DNA of 64,000 nucleotides, taken from Aestuariivirga sp. Lineage in GTDB: Bacteria > Pseudomonadota > Alphaproteobacteria > Rhizobiales > Aestuariivirgaceae. Positions within the stretch are counted from its first letter, which is position 1. Each line of letters begins with the position of its first letter. The notes beneath the pieces were generated by a model, which saw only the letters and a program-made list of their open reading frames with translations, was not told the origin of the DNA and searched no databases. The position numbers and the translations under genes are program-made. Below, in pieces: positions 4,944 through 15,790 of this stretch. The stretch spans positions 5,710 through 69,709 of the forward strand of contig NZ_JADCDB010000017.1 in NCBI RefSeq assembly GCF_020252395.1. Reading direction: 5' to 3'.

Positions 4944-7900
4944 GTGAGCGATCTTTTTCTGATCTCGGGGGTTGATCTCCCGCACAGCGGCGGTGGCCCG
5001 GGGCCAAGGCCCCCGATGCGAAGGCCTGCGCGTGTACCGCTTGTCACCCCCAGGGTTCTTGAGGGTGCGATCCAACGCACCGTGTTCAAGCCCTCCGAGG
5101 GCCAGCTCGCAGCCGCGAAGAAGTATGCGCGCATCGCCAGGAGCGCCAATTTCGCCAGGCAAAAGGAAGTCAGCGTCCGCGACATCTTTTACACGGACAT
5201 TCTCGGAACCATTCTCGGTTACTCGCGCTACGATCCCGAGAAGACCTACTCCCTGCATCTCGAGAAGGGCATCCGCACTGGTTCCGCGGATGCCGCGCTC
5301 GGGCGCTTCTCCGATGCCCAAGGCGATCGGCTCGTTGCGCCCCTGGAAATGAAGGGTCCTGCCTTCCGCGACCTGGATGCCATCATGCCAGGCCGGGGCA
5401 AAAGCCCGGTGCAGCAGGCGTGGGAATATGCCGTCGATTCTCCTGGCGTCTCCTGGGTGCTCGTCTCGAATTGCATCGAACTGCGGCTTTATCGCTTCGG
5501 CCGCGGGCGGGACGCCTATGAAAGCTTCGATCTCCGCCTGATCGATGACCCGGACCACCTCCGCCGCCTCATGCTGTTGCTCAGCGCGCAGCATCTGCTC
5601 GATGGCCACACGGAAGCGCTGCTCATCGAAACCGACAACGCGCTGCGGTCCGTCACGGACGAACTCTACAAGCAGTATCGAAAGCTGCGCGATGAAGTCC
5701 TCGCCTTCCTCACCTCGGCGGATGGCGGCCCCAGGCTCAACCGGCGCGCCGCCATCGAGCCGGTGCAGAAGCTGCTCGATCGCGTGCTGTTCATCGCCTT
5801 CGGCGGCGGAACGGGCCTGCTTCCGCAGCGCCTGCTTCAGAAGGCGGCGAAGGAACAAAGCTCGTGGCGTCCCGTGCCGGTGTGGGATAATTTTCAGCAG
5901 CTCTTCCGTTTCATCGACAAGGGCAGCGGCCCGCCCTTGCAGATCTGGGCCTATAATGGCGGGCTTTTTGCGCCCGATCCCGTGCTCGATGCCATCGTGC
6001 TGCCCGATCATCTGGCGCAGGCCGTGGCCGATATCGGCAATTGGGATTTCGGCAGCGAAATTCCGGTTACGGTTCTGGGCCGCATCTTCGAACAGTCCAT
6101 CACCGACCTCGAAAAGCTGCGCGCCGAGGCTGAAGGCCGCCCCGCGCCGGACGTCGGCAAGGTTAAGAAGGAAGGCGTCGTTTACACGCCGGATCACATT
6201 GCCCGCTTCCTGGTCGAACAGACGGCCGGCAAGACGTTGGCGGAGCGTTTCGCTGCGCTGCTCAAGCAGCACACCGGCCGCGATTCCCTTCCAAAGTCGG
6301 ATGACGATACACTGTGGCCAAGCCCCGGGGCCGAAGCCCGCTTCTGGCAGGATTATCTGGAGGTTCTTCGGTCGCTCAAGGTGCTGGACCCCGCCTGCGG
6401 GTCCGGCGCGTTCCTTGCCGCCGCATTCGATGTGCTGGCGGCGGACTATGCGCGGGTGCTCAACCGCCTCGACGAACTGAAGGTCCACACCGGCCTTGAC
6501 GCCTTCGACGAAATACTGGGCCGCAACCTCTTCGGCGTCGACCTCAACATCGAGTCGGTCGAAATCACCCGCCTGTCGCTGTGGCTCAAAACGGCGCGCC
6601 AGAAGCACCGGCTTGCCAGCCTGGATGAGACCATCAGGGACGGCAACAGCCTGATTGGCGAGAAGAACTATGCCGACCGTCCCTTCGCCTGGGATGGCCG
6701 CTTCGCCGATATCTTGAAGCAGGGGGGCTTCGACATTGTCATCGGCAACCCGCCCTATGTCCGGATGGAGCTACTCAAGGACCAGAAGCCCTATTTCAGC
6801 AAGCATTACGAAGTGGCGGACGAACGCACCGACCTCTACGCCTATTTCTTCGAAAAGGGCGTGGATGTGCTGAAGCCCGGCGGGCGGTTGGGCTATATCT
6901 CCTCGTCCAGTTTTTTCCGCACCGGCTCCGGCGTCAAGCTGCGCGCCCTCATGGCCGAAGAAACCGAAGTCGAAACCGTCATCGATTTCGGCGACGAGCA
7001 GATTTTCGAAGGCGTCACCACCTATCCCGCCATCATCACGGCGCGCAAACTCGCCAAGGACGAGCAGCCCGCGGGCGAGTTGCGCTTTTTCAACATCAGA
7101 AAACTGCCGCCGGACTTGGGCTCAGCCTTTCAGGCCCAGTCGCAAGCCATGCCGCGAAACCGGCTGGGCTCCGCCTCATGGCAATTCGAAAGCGATGCCC
7201 TGGCGCGGCTGCGGGACAAGATCGCCAAGGGCCGAAAGACATTGGGCGAGGTCTATGGCGCGCCTTTGCGGGGCATCATAACGGGCCTGAACGACGCTTT
7301 CATCATTAACACGCCAACGCGTGACCGGTTGATTGCCCGCGATCCGAAATCGGCCGATCTATTAAAGCCGTTCCTCAAGGGCGAACACATCAAGCGCTGG
7401 CGCGTGGAGCCGGAGGGCTTGTTCCTCATCAACATCCCAAAAGGCAAGATCAGCATCGATGATTATCCGGCTATTCGGGATCATCTGTTTCCATTCAAAG
7501 CGGAACTGGAGAGGCGCGCAACAAAGCAGGAGTGGTTTGAGCTTCAACAGGCGCAGCTTGCGTATCAGAAAAAATTCTTACTACCGAAGATATCTTATCC
7601 CCATTTTCAGAACAGCAGAATGTTCTGCCTAGAAATTGATGGTTCCTTTTCGAATGATAAGTCCTACTTTATCCCAACTGGCGACCTTGCGCTCCTTGCG
7701 TATCTGAATTCGAACGTTTCTTGGGTTTTCCTGTGTGGAGTTTCGCCTGCTGTTCGAAACGGGTGGCATGAAATGAGGGTTCAGTATGTTGAGAGTTTGC
7801 CGCTCGCCAATCTTACGGCGGCAACTGAAGCTGCTCTGATCGATCTCGCGCAAATCTGTACCGAACTCTCGCGCGAAAGCTTCCAGATTAGCCGAGCGGT

Positions 7901-8204
7901 ATATCTCCGTGTCGTCGCTGACCTGGCTAAAGGTAGAGCAGTTTCTGCAAAACTGCAGGAGTGGTATCAACTCGCTTTCGCTCAGTTCCGCTCCGAAGTG
8001 AAGCGAGTCTTTAGGGCGGATATTCCGGTCCGCGAGCGCGCCGAATGGGAGGCCTATCTCACGGAGGAAGGCACAAAGGTGAAGGCGCTTTCGGCTCAGA
8101 TCGCAGCCGCCGAAGCAGAGATCAACCGTCTCGTTTATGCTGCCTTCGATCTCACCGATCCGGAAATTTCTTTGCTGGAAGAGTCGCTCGCCGGTCAGTT
8201 GTAA
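4944..8204 (+). CDS. single-polypeptide Type IIG/IIL restriction-modification enzyme (MmeI-like: N-terminal nuclease, gamma-class N6-adenine methyltransferase, TaqI_C-like specificity domain)
   Basis: There is a D...ExK nuclease-like motif (ADAALGRF...VAPLEMKGPAFRDLD...QQAWEYA). The SAM motif I is VLDPACGSGAFL and the catalytic motif IV is IGNPPYVR. The TRD-like segment reads LRGIITGLNDAFIINTP...IKRW. The start is uncertain: GTG 4944 or ATG 5016. Confidence 0.85.
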   Translation: MSDLFLISGVDLPHSGGGPGPRPPMRRPARVPLVTPRVLEGAIQRTVFKPSEGQLAAAKKYARIARSANFARQKEVSVRDIFYTDILGTILGYSRYDPEKTYSLHLEKGIRTGSADAALGRFSDAQGDRLVAPLEMKGPAFRDLDAIMPGRGKSPVQQAWEYAVDSPGVSWVLVSNCIELRLYRFGRGRDAYESFDLRLIDDPDHLRRLMLLLSAQHLLDGHTEALLIETDNALRSVTDELYKQYRKLRDEVLAFLTSADGGPRLNRRAAIEPVQKLLDRVLFIAFGGGTGLLPQRLLQKAAKEQSSWRPVPVWDNFQQLFRFIDKGSGPPLQIWAYNGGLFAPDPVLDAIVLPDHLAQAVADIGNWDFGSEIPVTVLGRIFEQSITDLEKLRAEAEGRPAPDVGKVKKEGVVYTPDHIARFLVEQTAGKTLAERFAALLKQHTGRDSLPKSDDDTLWPSPGAEARFWQDYLEVLRSLKVLDPACGSGAFLAAAFDVLAADYARVLNRLDELKVHTGLDAFDEILGRNLFGVDLNIESVEITRLSLWLKTARQKHRLASLDETIRDGNSLIGEKNYADRPFAWDGRFADILKQGGFDIVIGNPPYVRMELLKDQKPYFSKHYEVADERTDLYAYFFEKGVDVLKPGGRLGYISSSSFFRTGSGVKLRALMAEETEVETVIDFGDEQIFEGVTTYPAIITARKLAKDEQPAGELRFFNIRKLPPDLGSAFQAQSQAMPRNRLGSASWQFESDALARLRDKIAKGRKTLGEVYGAPLRGIITGLNDAFIINTPTRDRLIARDPKSADLLKPFLKGEHIKRWRVEPEGLFLINIPKGKISIDDYPAIRDHLFPFKAELERRATKQEWFELQQAQLAYQKKFLLPKISYPHFQNSRMFCLEIDGSFSNDKSYFIPTGDLALLAYLNSNVSWVFLCGVSPAVRNGWHEMRVQYVESLPLANLTAATEAALIDLAQICTELSRESFQISRAVYLRVVADLAKGRAVSAKLQEWYQLAFAQFRSEVKRVFRADIPVRERAEWEAYLTEEGTKVKALSAQIAAAEAEINRLVYAAFDLTDPEISLLEESLAGQL

Positions 8205-11964: not shown

Positions 11965-14160
11965 ATGGCCGACCCGGACTGGACACTGCCTGCACCTGAG
12001 GTCGAGGCAATCGTATCGGGTCGACACGGAGATCCCTTCGCCGTGCTGGGCTTGCACCAGGCTGGCGCGGAGTGGGTGGCCCGCGCCTTCGTGCCGGGGG
12101 CGGAGGAGCTCGAAGTCCTCGACACGGACGGCAGGCGTCTCGCCGCGCTGCCACGCCGGCACCAGGCCGGCTTCTTCGAGGGCTTGCTGCCAGTATCGTG
12201 TCGACAGGGGCTGGGCTATCTCGCGCGCAACCAGGGCGGCAGATGGACGGTGATCGACCCCTATTTACTGGGTCCGGTGCTGGGACCGCTCGACGATTAT
12301 TACATCGGCGAGGGAAACCACCTGCGGCTTTATGACCGGCTGGGCGCGCATCCGATGCGGCACGAGGGGCATGACGGCGTGCATTTCGCGGTGTGGGCGC
12401 CCAATGCCTCACGCGTCTCCGCCGTCGGCGACTTCAACGGCTGGGACGGGCGAGCCCACGTGATGCGGAAGCGCCGCGACACAGGCGTGTGGGAGATCTT
12501 CATCCCCGGCGCGCAGGAAGGGCAATGCTACAAGTATGAATTGCTCGACCCCACAGGCAAACTGCTGCCGCTGAAGAGCGACCCGTTCGGATTTTCCGCC
12601 GAGATGCGGCCCAAGACGGCCTCGCGCGTGGCGCGTACCGATAATTTCAATTGGGAAGACAAGGCCTATCTGGACCGCCGCCGCAAGATCGACCAGCGCC
12701 GCACACCGATGTCGATCTACGAGGTGCATCTGGGCTCCTGGCGGCGCTGGAACGATGGCCGCTTTCTCACTTATGACGAACTCGCCGACACGCTGATCCC
12801 CTATGTGGCCGAGATGGGCTACACGCATATCGAGCTCCTGCCGGTGAGCGAGCACCCTTTCGACCCGTCCTGGGGCTACCAACCGACAGGGCTTTATGCG
12901 CCGACCTCGCGCTTCGGCGATCCGGCGGGCTTCGCGCGCTTCGTGGACGGCGCGCATCGCGCGGGGATCGGCGTCATCCTCGACTGGGTGCCGGCACATT
13001 TCCCGACCGACGAGCATGGGCTGGCACGCTTCGACGGCACCGCACTCTACGAGCACGAGGACCCGCGGCAGGGCTTCCACCCGGACTGGAACACCGCAAT
13101 CTATAATTTCGGGCGGAGGGAGGTGGCAAGCTTCCTGCTCAACAACGCGCTCTACTGGCTGGAGCGCTATCACGTCGATGGACTGCGCGTCGATGCGGTG
13201 GCCTCGATGCTCTATCTCGATTACTCGCGCAGAGAGGGCGAGTGGATTCCCAACGAACATGGCGGGCGCGAGAACCTGGAGGCTATCGCCTTCCTGCAGC
13301 GCGTGAACCATGAGGCCTATGGCCAGAACCCCGGCATCGTGACCATTGCAGAGGAATCGACCGCGTTTCCCGGCGTGTCGAAGCCCACCAATGCAGGCGG
13401 CCTCGGCTTCGGCTTCAAGTGGAACATGGGCTTCATGCATGACACACTGTCCTACCTGAAGCGCGAGCCCATCCACCGCAAGCACCACCACAATGAGCTG
13501 ACCTTCGGCCTGCTCTATGCCTTCTCGGAAAACTTCGTGCTGCCGCTGTCCCACGACGAGGTGGTGCATGGCAAGGGTTCGCTCTTGAACAAGATGGCGG
13601 GCGATGCGTGGCAGAAATTCGCGACCTTGCGCGCCTATTACGCCTTCATGTGGGGATACCCGGGCAAGAAGCTGCTCTTCATGGGGCAGGAACTCGCACC
13701 CTGGGGCGAATGGTCGGAGGCCAAGAGCCTGGACTGGAACCTGCTGGACCATGCGCCGCACCGCGGCGTGCAATCCCTCATGCGCGACCTGAACCACGTC
13801 TACCGCGGCACGCCCGCGCTCCATGCGCGCGACTGCGAGCCGGAGGGCTTCGAGTGGCTGACGGCGGACGACAAGGAAAACTCCGTCTTCGCCTGGGCGC
13901 GCCATTCGGGCGAGGGACACCCGATCGTGGTGGTGGTGAGCAACTTCACGCCTGTGCCGCGGACGTGCTATGCGCTGCCCATGCCGGTGGCCGGACGCTG
14001 GCGGGAGCTGCTCAACACCGACGCCCATATCTATGGCGGAAGCGGCATGGGCAACATGGGGGCGGTGGTGGCGGAACCGGAGCCGCTGAACGGCAAGCCG
14101 GCCCAGGCAAGCGTGACCTTGCCACCGCTCGCAACCTTGTATTTCATGCAGGATGGCTAG
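11965..14160 (+). CDS. glgB: 1,4-alpha-glucan branching enzyme
   Basis: 731 aa. GH13 motifs are present: [48 protein letters not shown]. Confidence 0.95.
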
Positions 14161-14172
14161 GGACGTGGTTTT

Positions 14173-14221
14173 CCCTCCCCCTTGTGGGGAGGGGAGAAGG
14201 AAATGGACGGCTCCCCACAAG
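14173..14221. repeat. nested inverted repeats in the glgB-glgC spacer (REP-like, not a canonical terminator)
   Basis: CCCTCCCC (14173-14180) pairs with GGGGAGGG (14186-14193) across the loop CTTGT. In addition, CTTGTGGGGAG (14181-14191) is the exact reverse complement of CTCCCCACAAG (14211-14221), which allows an alternative pairing. No U-tract follows. Confidence 0.45.
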
Positions 14222-14240
14222 AGCGAGGGGAACTGGAAAC

Positions 14241-14327
14241 GGAGGAAGGCCCATGGCCGGACAGAGAAGGACCGGACCGCTGGCGCGCGATGCGATGGCC
14301 TATGTGCTGGCCGGCGGGCGCGGCAGC
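14241..14327 (+). repeat. direct repeat copy 1: duplicated glgC RBS plus codons 1-25
   Basis: 87 nt align with 15704..15790 at offset 1463 with 4 mismatches: ggaggaaggcccATGgcc...gtgctggc...cgcggcagc. Confidence 0.9.
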
Positions 14328-14351
14328 AGTGTCGCTGTGAGGTGGAGGTAA
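14253..14351 (+). pseudogene. glgC' 5' remnant (32 codons, [25 protein letters not shown] then out-of-context SVAVRWR*)
   Basis: The first 25 codons match glgC at 15716. The ORF leaves homology at 14328 and stops at TAA 14349-14351, 5 nt before the cassette ATG. Confidence 0.8.
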
Positions 14352-14356
14352 CGATC

Positions 14357-15163
14357 ATGCCTGACAGCAACCGGATAACGATGATCATCGAGGGTCTGCC
14401 CGAAGACGATGGCCGGGTCCGCTTTAAGACTTTCATCGATCAGCTCCAGAGTCTCAACGCAACAATCAATAGACTCGATCGAGAGCATTCCGAAGGTCGA
14501 GAGCACGTCGATTTTCAGATAGCCGAGCTTTCCTTCAACAGTCCTGTGCGCGTTGTTCTGGAACCAAAACCCACTGCGAATGCGCAAGGTATTGCGGCAG
14601 CCATCATCGATAGCTTCAAAAAAGTCGGGGATGCCATAGACGGCGATGATGATCTGAGCAGAATTGATAGCGATATTCTTGCTGATATGCGCGCCCTTGC
14701 CCGCCCGGTTGGTAAGCAGGTGAAATCCGCTTCTCTTCGATTCGATGGCGAAGAATTCAGATTGACCGAGCGTGTCTATAGCCGAGCTGATCAAGCTCTA
14801 GCCGTAACAGAAGAATGTGACGGAACCTTCGATGGAATGCTTGAGCAAATCAACATCCATCTTGGGGCGAACACCTTCCACATCTACCCGACTATCGGCC
14901 CCAGAAGGATCGCTTGCACCTTCCCAGCGACACTATACGACGATGCTGTCGCGGCCGTTGGTAGAAGAGTTGAAGTGTCCGGCTTACTCAGATACCGGTC
15001 GGGTGCAGACTTCCCCCATCAGATAATTGTGCGCGAAATCAGAGTGTTTCCCAACGAAGACAGCCTCCCAGATTGGGAGGACATCCGAGGAATAGCGCCA
15101 GATGCAACAGGTTCTTTAACGAGTGAGGCATTCGTAAGGGAGTTGCGTGATGCCTGGGTCTAG
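14357..15163 (+). CDS. hypothetical 268-aa protein, first gene of the cassette; putative partner or antitoxin of the PIN protein
   Basis: ATG 14357 is preceded by GGTGGAGG (14341-14348). I recognise no family motif. The gene overlaps the start of the downstream PIN gene by 14 nt. Confidence 0.65.
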   Translation: MPDSNRITMIIEGLPEDDGRVRFKTFIDQLQSLNATINRLDREHSEGREHVDFQIAELSFNSPVRVVLEPKPTANAQGIAAAIIDSFKKVGDAIDGDDDLSRIDSDILADMRALARPVGKQVKSASLRFDGEEFRLTERVYSRADQALAVTEECDGTFDGMLEQINIHLGANTFHIYPTIGPRRIACTFPATLYDDAVAAVGRRVEVSGLLRYRSGADFPHQIIVREIRVFPNEDSLPDWEDIRGIAPDATGSLTSEAFVRELRDAWV

Positions 15164-15668
15164 TCCTCTGTACTACTGGGATACATGCCTCTTCCTTGCT
15201 TGGCTGAAGGATGAAGAACGCCCAACGGGTGAAATGGCCGGGGTACGGGAAGTAATCGCCAAATGTAAGCGTCGCGACGCAGTCATGATGACTTCTGTTG
15301 TCACGTTGACGGAGGTCTTGAGCTCCCAATTGCCCGCTGGAACAGACAGACTCTTCACCGATCTAATGCAGAGAGTTCAACTCAAGTCCGTGGATACCAA
15401 AATAGCTCGCTTAGCTCATGACCTAAGAGACTGGTTTTGGCAAAGGCGAGCCGAGTACAACAATACCCCACTCTCTGTTCCTGATGCATTGCACTTAGCA
15501 ACTGCTGTTCTGTACAAGGCAAATGAGTTCCACACATTTGATCGTAAAAACAGTCGTAACTCGCTCGGACTATTGCCTCTGTCTGGAAATGTGGGCGGCC
15601 ACAAATTGGTTGTATGTAAACCAGAGGCAAAGCATCTGGAGCTTGATCTCCGAAGGCCGAAAAAATGA
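15150..15668 (+). CDS. PIN-domain (VapC-like) ribonuclease, 172 aa
   Basis: The acidic quartet has PIN-typical spacing and context: D11 (YYWDTCLF), E55 (TLTEVLS), D112 (VPDALHLATAV), D131 (FHTFD). The start is ATG 15150, with GTG 15147 as an alternative. Confidence 0.8.
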   Translation: MPGSSPLYYWDTCLFLAWLKDEERPTGEMAGVREVIAKCKRRDAVMMTSVVTLTEVLSSQLPAGTDRLFTDLMQRVQLKSVDTKIARLAHDLRDWFWQRRAEYNNTPLSVPDALHLATAVLYKANEFHTFDRKNSRNSLGLLPLSGNVGGHKLVVCKPEAKHLELDLRRPKK

Positions 15669-15703
15669 CGAATGAAACGACATTCGATAACATAGCCGAA
15701 TAG

Positions 15704-15790
15704 GGAGGAAGGCCCATGGCCGCACAGAGAAGGACCGGACCGCTGGCGCGCGATGCGATGGCCTATGTGCTGGCGGGGGGCCGCGGCAGC
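15704..15790 (+). repeat. direct repeat copy 2: functional glgC RBS plus codons 1-25
   Basis: See copy 1. This copy continues into the full-length glgC. Confidence 0.9.

Follow-up and report, generated by a model that had tools for sequence, protein, structure and literature searches.

An IS1595-family fragment carrying a VapC-like PIN gene pair in the glycogen operon of Aestuariivirga sp., bracketed by a duplication of the glgC start

The glycogen operon of Aestuariivirga sp. was examined in a 64,000-nucleotide stretch of contig NZ_JADCDB010000017.1 (hereafter the window), in which two overlapping genes lie between glgB and glgC and are bracketed by a direct duplication of the 5' end of glgC. 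The first gene (ORF1) encodes a member of an uncharacterised family and the second (PIN) a PIN-domain protein. Comparison with related loci identified this cassette as an immobile internal fragment of a passenger-carrying insertion sequence (IS) of the IS1595 family. On balance a single capture of the fragment, without transposition, is probable, as is expression of its toxin-antitoxin (TA)-like gene pair with the glg operon and retention of the pair by selection or addiction.

The repeat was characterised by a search of the window against itself, which returned a single 87-nt direct repeat with a spacing of 1463 nt, identical at 83 of 87 positions (BLAST E = 3.5e-36 within the local 12.8-kb neighbourhood). 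This agrees with the 87-bp duplication described in an earlier note on this DNA, which had been made from the letters of the sequence alone. The repeat contains the glgC Shine-Dalgarno sequence GGAGGAAGGCCC, the ATG and codons 1–25; three of the four mismatches fall in the last 16 nt, and the repeat has an identical core of 51 nt. The true duplication is approximately 90 nt and runs from the glgB stop codon (TAGGGAGGAAGGCCCATG) to glgC codon 25. On the left side the glgB stop reads TAGGGA and is followed by a 77-nt hairpin and then by GGAGGAAGGCCCATG, and at the right copy the junction reads TAGGGAGGAAGGCCCATGG, like the native glgB-stop/glgC-start of relatives (locus L051: TAGGGAGGACGCCATG). 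The right copy retains the Shine-Dalgarno sequence and the N-terminus, and glgC is intact at 421 residues, as the note had stated. The coordinates of all features are given in Table 1.

Table 1. Features of the glgB–glgC interval, in positions of the window.
Feature	Coordinates	Strand	Basis or remark
glgB, 1,4-alpha-glucan branching enzyme	11965..14160	+	ORF; orthologue in relatives annotated GlgB_N/CBM_48/Alpha-amylase_C
glgB stop TAG, left edge of the duplicated segment	14158-14160	+	junction alignment
REP/MITE-like hairpin insert, 77 nt	14164..14240	.	3-nt GGA repeat flanks; splits the left copy
Left copy of the glgC 5' region: Shine-Dalgarno, ATG at 14253, codons 1-25	14241..14327	+	
glgC' leader ORF, 32 codons (25 from GlgC and 7 element-derived, SVAVRWR)	14253..14351	+	stop TAA 14349-14351
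tnp-ORF1 spacer remnant, 29 nt, with GGAGG Shine-Dalgarno for ORF1	14328..14356	+	
ORF1, 268 aa, uncharacterised family, candidate PIN partner/antitoxin	14357..15163	+	
PIN-domain protein, 172 aa, VapC-like; 14-nt overlap with ORF1	15150..15668	+	PF01850
orf3, dead remnant	15614..15703	+	ATG-TAA at 15614-15619 where ATG-CAA start is usual
Right copy: TAG, Shine-Dalgarno, ATG at 15716, codons 1-25; functional glgC start	15701..15790	+	
glgC, glucose-1-phosphate adenylyltransferase, intact, 421 aa	15716..16981	+	then glgA, pgm
ORF, open reading frame; REP, repetitive extragenic palindrome; MITE, miniature inverted-repeat transposable element; tnp, transposase gene; aa, amino acids.

Exactly two genes, ORF1 (268 residues) and PIN (172 residues), lie in the 1,376 bp that separate the copies; they overlap and are both on the + strand, and the open reading frame list and the PF01850 match bore out the earlier count. 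The G+C content of the insert is 0.45–0.565 per 200-nt window and 0.51 across both genes, compared with 0.64–0.65 in flanks of 2.7–2.8 kb; the AT-richness reported before was therefore real, whereas the value of 74% G+C then given for glgC was too high (0.59–0.70 in 200-nt windows). The insert contains no recombinase or integrase, ORF1 and PIN being the only genes between the copies, and no inverted repeat was found to bracket it (14328–15703) in the repeat search. A tblastn search with three IS1595-type transposases as queries found no transposase-like sequence in the 64-kb window. For the insert, the absence of transposase, integrase and terminal inverted repeats noted previously was upheld. 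A scan of the whole window for Rfam families gave no match.

The origin of the cassette was traced through roughly 75 related loci, 34 from genomes and 43 from metagenomes (numbered with the prefix L). The search of other genomes for the gene pair that had been proposed in the note showed that the pair follows an IS1595-type transposase gene in about 32 of these loci. The upstream gene encodes 305–315 residues, ends 20–50 nt before ORF1 and matches PF12762 (ISXO2-like DDE, E 1e-22 to 1e-40) and PF12760 (Zn ribbon), and its product carries the NCBI name IS1595 family transposase. The complete unit consists of a left inverted repeat (IRL), the Zn-ribbon/DDE transposase gene (tnp), ORF1, PIN, a third small gene (orf3) and a right inverted repeat (IRR), with terminal inverted repeats of 23–27 bp and a length of 2.55–2.65 kb in the four units measured. 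Inverted repeats were found in L002, L008, L016, L017, L020, L023, L025, L038, L053, L057, L064, L066 and L073, and an 8-bp target duplication was clear in two units, L002 (CTTTTTTT) and L038 (CTTGTGGG). The small gene orf3, situated between PIN and IRR, encodes about 55–70 residues with the conserved pattern ..RF.EAARE.G.DEDEA.F...KIAK.KP.., had no match in a Pfam search, and is intact in L004, L007, L008, L009, L016, L020, L021, L025, L028 and L038.

Wherever a contig reaches both genes, ORF1 and PIN are neighbours and overlap by the same short stretch, the exceptions being a few copies truncated within the contig; the G+C content of the pair is nearly always below that of the surrounding DNA. 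Copies truncated at the 5' end that still carry the 3' end of tnp (GKRLMYRDS*) just before ORF1 were seen in at least 13 other loci. The closest relatives of ORF1 beyond the glgC-linked copies (84% and 69% amino acid identity) are located directly downstream of an IS1595 transposase gene, and the 69% relative, L038, also has the inverted repeats and target duplication. A metagenome scan for a close intact relative gave nothing above 63% amino acid identity. The foreign nature of the cassette, as first suggested, is thus supported by its low G+C content and by its relatives being cargo of an IS1595-family element. The note had not recognised the insertion architecture as any standard element type; the type is recognisable as tnp-ORF1-PIN-orf3 with inverted repeats and an 8-bp duplication, and only the manner of insertion is odd.

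Element-derived sequence in the window extends from 29 nt before ORF1, within the tnp-ORF1 spacer, to 35 nt after the PIN stop, inside orf3. The left junction is at 14327/14328 and the right junction at approximately 15700/15701. Homology to the conserved ..TCGCATTGTGGTGCGGTTT-ATG spacer, as seen in the upstream regions of 28 related loci, starts a few nucleotides past the left junction, and of the tnp 3' end, which is retained in most truncated copies, the window copy has no trace. The orf3 remnant ends as a 12-codon stub (MTNETTFDNIAE) running from 15665, where it forms an ATGA overlap with the PIN stop, to the TAG at 15701–15703. Because neither junction is an IS end, the 87–90-nt repeat is not a transposition footprint.

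Transposases with Zn-ribbon and DDE domains, terminal inverted repeats and 8-bp target duplications are traits of the IS1595 family. The related loci resemble the IS1595 'transporter IS' in their PF12760 and PF12762 transposase, inverted repeats of 23–27 bp, 8-bp duplications and extra genes inside the element, whereas the window copy has no transposase, no terminal inverted repeats, and an imperfect duplication of 87–90 nt in place of 8 bp. Passenger-carrying 'transporter IS' of this family are a known class (Siguier, Gagnevin and Chandler, 2009, as cited in PMC3129680). In the literature, a search that did not extend to ISfinder, no description was found of IS1595 elements with a cargo of PIN, orf3 and a protein with an oligonucleotide/oligosaccharide-binding (OB) fold.

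Other element classes were considered and rejected for the window copy. As an IS derivative without transposase it is like a mobile insertion cassette (MIC) or MITE, but it lacks both inverted repeats, and a transposase supplied in trans could therefore not move it. An integron gene cassette was rejected since there is no attC-like inverted repeat, only a small 6-bp hairpin after PIN (15669–15686), and since the flanks are a duplicated host gene start. A site-specific integrative element was rejected since no recombinase lies between the repeats and since 26 other cassette loci, examined by Smith-Waterman alignment, have no flanking direct repeat within ±500 bp. Islands that carry a replacement 5' end for their target gene are known, for example the elements with dusA-specific integrases, which have an integrase and a short core site. 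The window insert is like these islands in that direct repeats of the 5' end of the target gene bracket it and the gene remains functional. It is unlike them in having no integrase, in being a 1.4-kb IS fragment, in its repeats of 87–90 bp at 95% identity instead of a short exact core, and in that other copies of the cassette have no such site.

Elsewhere, the intact elements of L002 (4978–7624) and L038 (2647–5223) are located in intergenic hairpins, the former in the T-run of a terminator-like hairpin (target duplication CTTTTTTT) and the latter in a REP hairpin that has sdhA upstream of it and a DUF559 (Vsr-like) gene downstream, which suggests a target preference of the IS for intergenic stem-loops. 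A third locus, L009, is an internally deleted, MIC-like derivative that has both terminal inverted repeats (319–343 and 2185–2209) and only transposase residues 238–306, and could still be mobilised by a transposase in trans.

That the cassette was inserted between glgB and glgC, as the note had proposed, became clear when the interval was aligned with that of relatives. The nearest GlgC homologues have 92–95% amino acid identity, among them proteins named Aestuariivirga sp. In 13 contigs with a 94–95% identical GlgC the operon order is glgP-glgB-glgC-glgA-pgm and only 10–11 nt separate the glgB stop from the glgC ATG; these are empty sites, and the window cassette is therefore an insertion. 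Short-read contigs do break within the repeat, a point in favour of an assembly artefact, but the two repeat copies differ at 4 positions and Logan assemblies from two runs match the window at 100% (14282–15753 and 14345–15753). Both of these assemblies span the right junction, the first spans the left junction also, and they end inside the repeat as expected from its 51-nt identical core. A cassette of 84–85% identity with homologous junctions is present in two further runs, and one of those contigs continues into unique glgC. With the junctions reproduced in this way by independent assemblies, it is extremely improbable that the duplication or the insert is an artefact.

In these two further runs, which are unrelated, the same architecture is seen in a second lineage: Logan contigs L037 and L095 each have a cassette with 84–85% nucleotide identity to that of the window. 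At their left junction glgC codon 25 is joined to a 29-nt spacer with the leader stop 5 nt before ORF1, and at their right junction the 12-codon stub is followed by TAG, the Shine-Dalgarno sequence and the glgC ATG, with L095 continuing into glgC. In L037 the frame and the stop position of the leader are kept (TGA), though about half of the 29-nt spacer has changed. The host glgC start of both contigs is approximately 96% identical to that of an empty-site group (L039–L050), so that filled and empty sites alternate among close relatives. Comparison of the window with L037 gave rates of non-synonymous and synonymous substitution (dN/dS) of 0.038/0.926 for ORF1 and 0.055/0.928 for PIN, and the overall ratio of 0.04–0.06 at a dS of 0.93 indicates that both genes are under strong purifying selection. 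Both are intact in approximately 80% of the transposase-less loci. The dS of the cassette is higher than that of host genes, which was 0.39–0.61 between the window and L039.

The mismatches between the repeat copies cluster in the last 20 nt or so in both lineages, and the central region of about 50 nt is identical. One lineage-specific site is common to both copies of a genome, GAT in the window copies and GAC in the L037 copies, and this sharing points to gene conversion or homology-driven re-insertion. At another site the left copies have GGG and the right copies GGC in both lineages, so that left groups with left and right with right, and this points to one old duplication. The two sites pull apart, and the data are too few to decide between them.

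The two proteins were analysed by sequence and structure searches. ORF1 had no match in Pfam, NCBIfam, PADLOC or PHROG, no PDB sequence-profile match and no plasmid match, and PADLOC-DB v2 gave no family at E<=1 for either ORF1 or PIN. An indexed search returned 381 homologues of ORF1, and a profile search gave 2,461 clusters at 50% identity (E<=1e-3), nearly all of 260–280 residues and none with a family annotation. The mean column identity over 21 homologues was 72%. The AlphaFold2 model of ORF1, with a predicted local distance difference test (pLDDT) score of 82.8, consists of an alpha/beta domain at the N-terminus, an OB fold spanning approximately residues 150–235 and C-terminal helices of low confidence. 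Structural matches of the OB fold were SSB, the N-domain of LysRS and ExoVII, with a probability of about 1.0 and weak E values near 1e-3. The whole ORF1 model was also matched by two uncharacterised phage or prophage proteins in BFVD (A0A8S5QA00 and A0A8S5T657, E 2e-9), one of which is annotated as DUF6575; Pfam finds no DUF6575 in ORF1.

The PIN protein had 506 homologues and matched PF01850 with an E value of 1.2e-8. Its acidic tetrad of D11, E55, D112 and D131 is invariant, or nearly so, in 22 homologues. The best PDB matches of its AlphaFold2 model (pLDDT 74) found by Foldseek were VapC toxins, for example 5ecw with a target-normalised template-modelling (TM) score of 0.75, and the NCBI name of one homologue is 'type II toxin-antitoxin system VapC family toxin'. 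Metagenome contigs L079–L085 contain a distant clade of the pair, with 37–41% amino acid identity and a shorter PIN protein of approximately 160 residues. In this clade the pair never occurs with the IS1595 transposase, and its neighbours include a phage-type integrase, an N6/N4 DNA methylase, an HNH endonuclease or a PolX-PHP gene. As the distant clade is never found with a transposase, the pair is an autonomous module. A role of ORF1 and PIN as accessory genes of transposition was rejected, since this clade lacks the transposase and transposase-less copies stay under selection.

ORF1 and PIN most likely form a TA-like addiction or defence pair in which PIN would be a VapC-type ribonuclease, and the addiction or defence role put forward in the note fits the predicted VapC-like fold and the strong purifying selection. 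The pair resembles VapBC in several ways: its PIN protein is toxin-like, with a VapC-like fold and the acidic tetrad in place; the gene for the partner is upstream, co-oriented and overlapping (by 14 nt in the window, and likewise wherever both genes are visible); and it is found on mobile DNA and kept after decay of the vehicle. A difference is that the partner has 268 residues with an alpha/beta domain and an OB fold, and no AbrB, RHH, PHD or HTH domain. Moreover, ORF1 falls into none of the Pfam or NCBIfam families and is conserved as strongly as the toxin, and only its low-confidence C-terminal helices resemble an antitoxin tail. In the proposed mechanism ORF1, equipped with an OB fold and a flexible C-terminal tail, would be the overlapping upstream partner, binding nucleic acid and restraining or targeting the nuclease.

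Features of ORF1 could also be read as those of a two-subunit nuclease system that benefits the host, in anti-phage or anti-plasmid defence or in RNA processing, and is not an addiction pair, with the OB fold of ORF1 recognising the substrate. The large size of ORF1, its conservation (72% over 21 homologues) and its OB fold are unlike those of small, fast-evolving antitoxins, and strong purifying selection on both genes, the two phage or prophage proteins that match the entire ORF1 model, and the transposase-free distant clade beside integrase, DNA methylase and HNH genes also speak in its favour. On the other hand, the nearest structures to PIN are all VapC toxins, an overlapping upstream partner and carriage on a transposon are classic TA traits, no match was found in PADLOC or PHROG, and the neighbourhoods are heterogeneous and not clear defence islands. 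Such a system is a possible alternative, though a rather unlikely one.

TA pairs, including some with PIN-type toxins, are built into transposons of the Tn3 family, where they have been proposed to aid stable invasion (Lima-Mendez et al., 2020, PMC7157771). The related loci are like these transposons in that a TA-like pair is integral to the element. They differ in that the vehicle here is a DDE IS of 2.6 kb with no resolvase or res site, and in that the pair is downstream of tnp and, in the window, has outlived the transposon. A description of TA pairs in IS1595 elements was not found in the literature.

The arrangement of reading frames bears on the expression of the pair. After a 92-nt spacer between glgB and glgC', the frames follow one another in a tight chain: glgC' ends 5 nt before the ORF1 ATG, ORF1 overlaps PIN, PIN overlaps the 12-codon stub by ATGA, and the stub ends 12 nt before glgC. 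No + strand terminator was found inside the insert, and no convincing promoter was found there, the scan counts being close to the shuffled expectation. Co-transcription of the cassette with the glg operon is plausible, because of the lack of a + strand terminator and the tight chain of reading frames. The cassette would then be transcribed and translated with the operon, and the near gap-free chain of frames would avoid polarity on glgC-glgA-pgm.

For the insertion itself we favour a single capture of the IS fragment in an Aestuariivirga-like lineage by a non-transpositional event, which would have doubled a segment of approximately 90 bp that begins at the glgB stop and ends at glgC codon 25. 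Candidate events are template switching, trimming of a larger duplication, and illegitimate capture during the fill-in of a staggered break. The right copy would have preserved the Shine-Dalgarno sequence and N-terminus of glgC, the left copy would have turned into the 32-codon leader ORF, and the later history would have included partial gene conversion and repeated scarless loss. Recombination between the copies would delete the cassette without a scar, so its persistence would imply that the pair is either addictive or under selection. The least certain step is how the duplication arose, and the mechanism given for it is a guess.

Several points weigh against this reading. Since neither junction is an IS end, the mechanism of the ~90-bp duplication is conjectural. 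The sharing of GAT or GAC within a genome needs gene conversion if there was a single ancient event, and repeated homology-driven insertion could have produced it instead. The excess of cassette dS over host dS is compatible with simple co-divergence but is not predicted by it. With respect to function, ORF1 is without the DNA-binding folds of canonical VapB proteins and exceeds them by far in size and also in conservation, the link between ORF1 and PIN is putative, and as neither protein has a PADLOC model a role in defence is unsupported.

Long flanking repeats do not generally accompany the cassette. When whole flanks of approximately 58 loci were compared by BLAST, only L006 and L062 had long flanking repeats. 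In L006 (5223–5648 and 7941–8400) host direct repeats of at least 420 nt, 92–97% identical, flank a 5'-truncated tnp-ORF1-PIN-orf3-IRR unit; the right copy abuts IRR and the left copy reads as an uninterrupted empty site. This contig belongs to a metagenome-assembled genome (MAG) and ends inside the right copy, so a strain-chimeric assembly is possible. In L062 (451–550 and 2411–2508) direct repeats of 100 nt, 84% identical, flank a truncated unit; they may be either duplicated host DNA or a small repeat element present twice.

The principal competing explanation for the bracket is that the cassette is a mobile, homology-guided unit: a 1.46-kb circle with one copy of the glgC 5' end, set free when the two repeat copies recombine, would re-integrate by a Campbell-type single crossover at the conserved glgC start of related genomes, each integration recreating the bracket and never disrupting the target gene. 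The architecture is exactly that expected of a circle inserted by single crossover, two lineages are filled and each has close relatives with empty sites, both copies within each genome carry the bases of their own lineage, and the dS of the cassette exceeds that of the host. The truncated units between long direct host repeats in L006, and possibly L062, could be counted in the same direction, but the MAG contig of L006 stops within the repeat and may be a strain chimera, and repeats of this kind are missing from 26 other loci. A circle junction was not seen, and a length of 87–90 bp comes close to the minimum for efficient recombination by RecA. The GGG/GGC site groups left copies with left and right with right, as for one old duplication, and scarless loss explains the same pattern of gain and loss. 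A circulating unit is therefore considered improbable. In its wider form, slightly more doubtful again, the bracket would be the signature of a second, transposase-independent route of spread, in which a circle excised via the repeats enters the start of a housekeeping gene by a single crossover over short homology. The spare ribosome-binding site and N-terminus would then keep the target active, and L006 and L062 would be further examples.

The boundaries of the fragment were also considered in terms of an RNA intermediate, in which a reverse-transcribed ORF1-PIN transcript was inserted, as with 5'-truncated retroposed copies. This would explain the clean boundaries of the pair, from about 29 nt before ORF1 to 35 nt after PIN and just beyond the hairpin at 15669–15686, together with the long target duplication and the absence of IS ends. 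Deletion trimming under selection accounts for these boundaries equally well. A reverse transcriptase was not noticed, the other ORFs of the window not having been systematically annotated, and neither a poly(A)-like nor a primer signature is present. To our knowledge retroprocessed genes are essentially unheard of in bacteria, and an RNA intermediate is hardly credible here. Single capture of an IS1595-derived fragment remains the preferred reading of the locus.

The left copy contains a further insertion. Its hairpin is formed by an inverted repeat at 14170–14191 and 14211–14232 that is 86% complementary, with a predicted fold of −45.9 kcal/mol (z −1.4), and the hairpin is present neither in the right copy nor in relatives. 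Removal of the hairpin in silico gives back TAGGGAGGAAGGCCCATGG, as in the right copy and L051. The hairpin core CCCTTGTGGGGAGGGG is also the site at which the intact IS of L038 was inserted (target duplication CTTGTGGG). A small hairpin element thus entered the left copy after the duplication.

The most valuable leads from this locus are the large uncharacterised ORF1 family and the non-disruptive architecture of the insertion. ORF1 represents a large unstudied family (2,461 clusters at 50% identity with no Pfam model) that is the obligate upstream partner of a VapC-like PIN protein and a regular cargo of the IS1595 family across Alphaproteobacteria. The pair is a candidate for a new type of TA or defence system and may be a case of an 'addictive' insertion sequence. 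It is also an example of selfish cargo that has outlasted its vehicle and now sits wired into a core metabolic operon. Taken together, the leader ORF, the unbroken chain of frames and the doubled translation start would amount to a natural design for non-polar insertion. Should the pair prove to be a growth-arresting nuclease, regulation of glycogen synthesis would also govern its expression. The long repeat would provide a route of scarless excision, making the locus convenient for measuring addiction against loss.

A further gene was observed upstream in the window. The + strand gene at 4944–8204 encodes a 1,086-residue type IIG restriction-modification-like enzyme with an Eco57I methylase domain (E 1e-43) and N6_Mtase, MmeI_Mtase and TaqI_C matches. 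Its 3' half has a low G+C content of approximately 54%. The gene directly precedes glgP and a gene for an EamA transporter, and it is probably another accessory gene.

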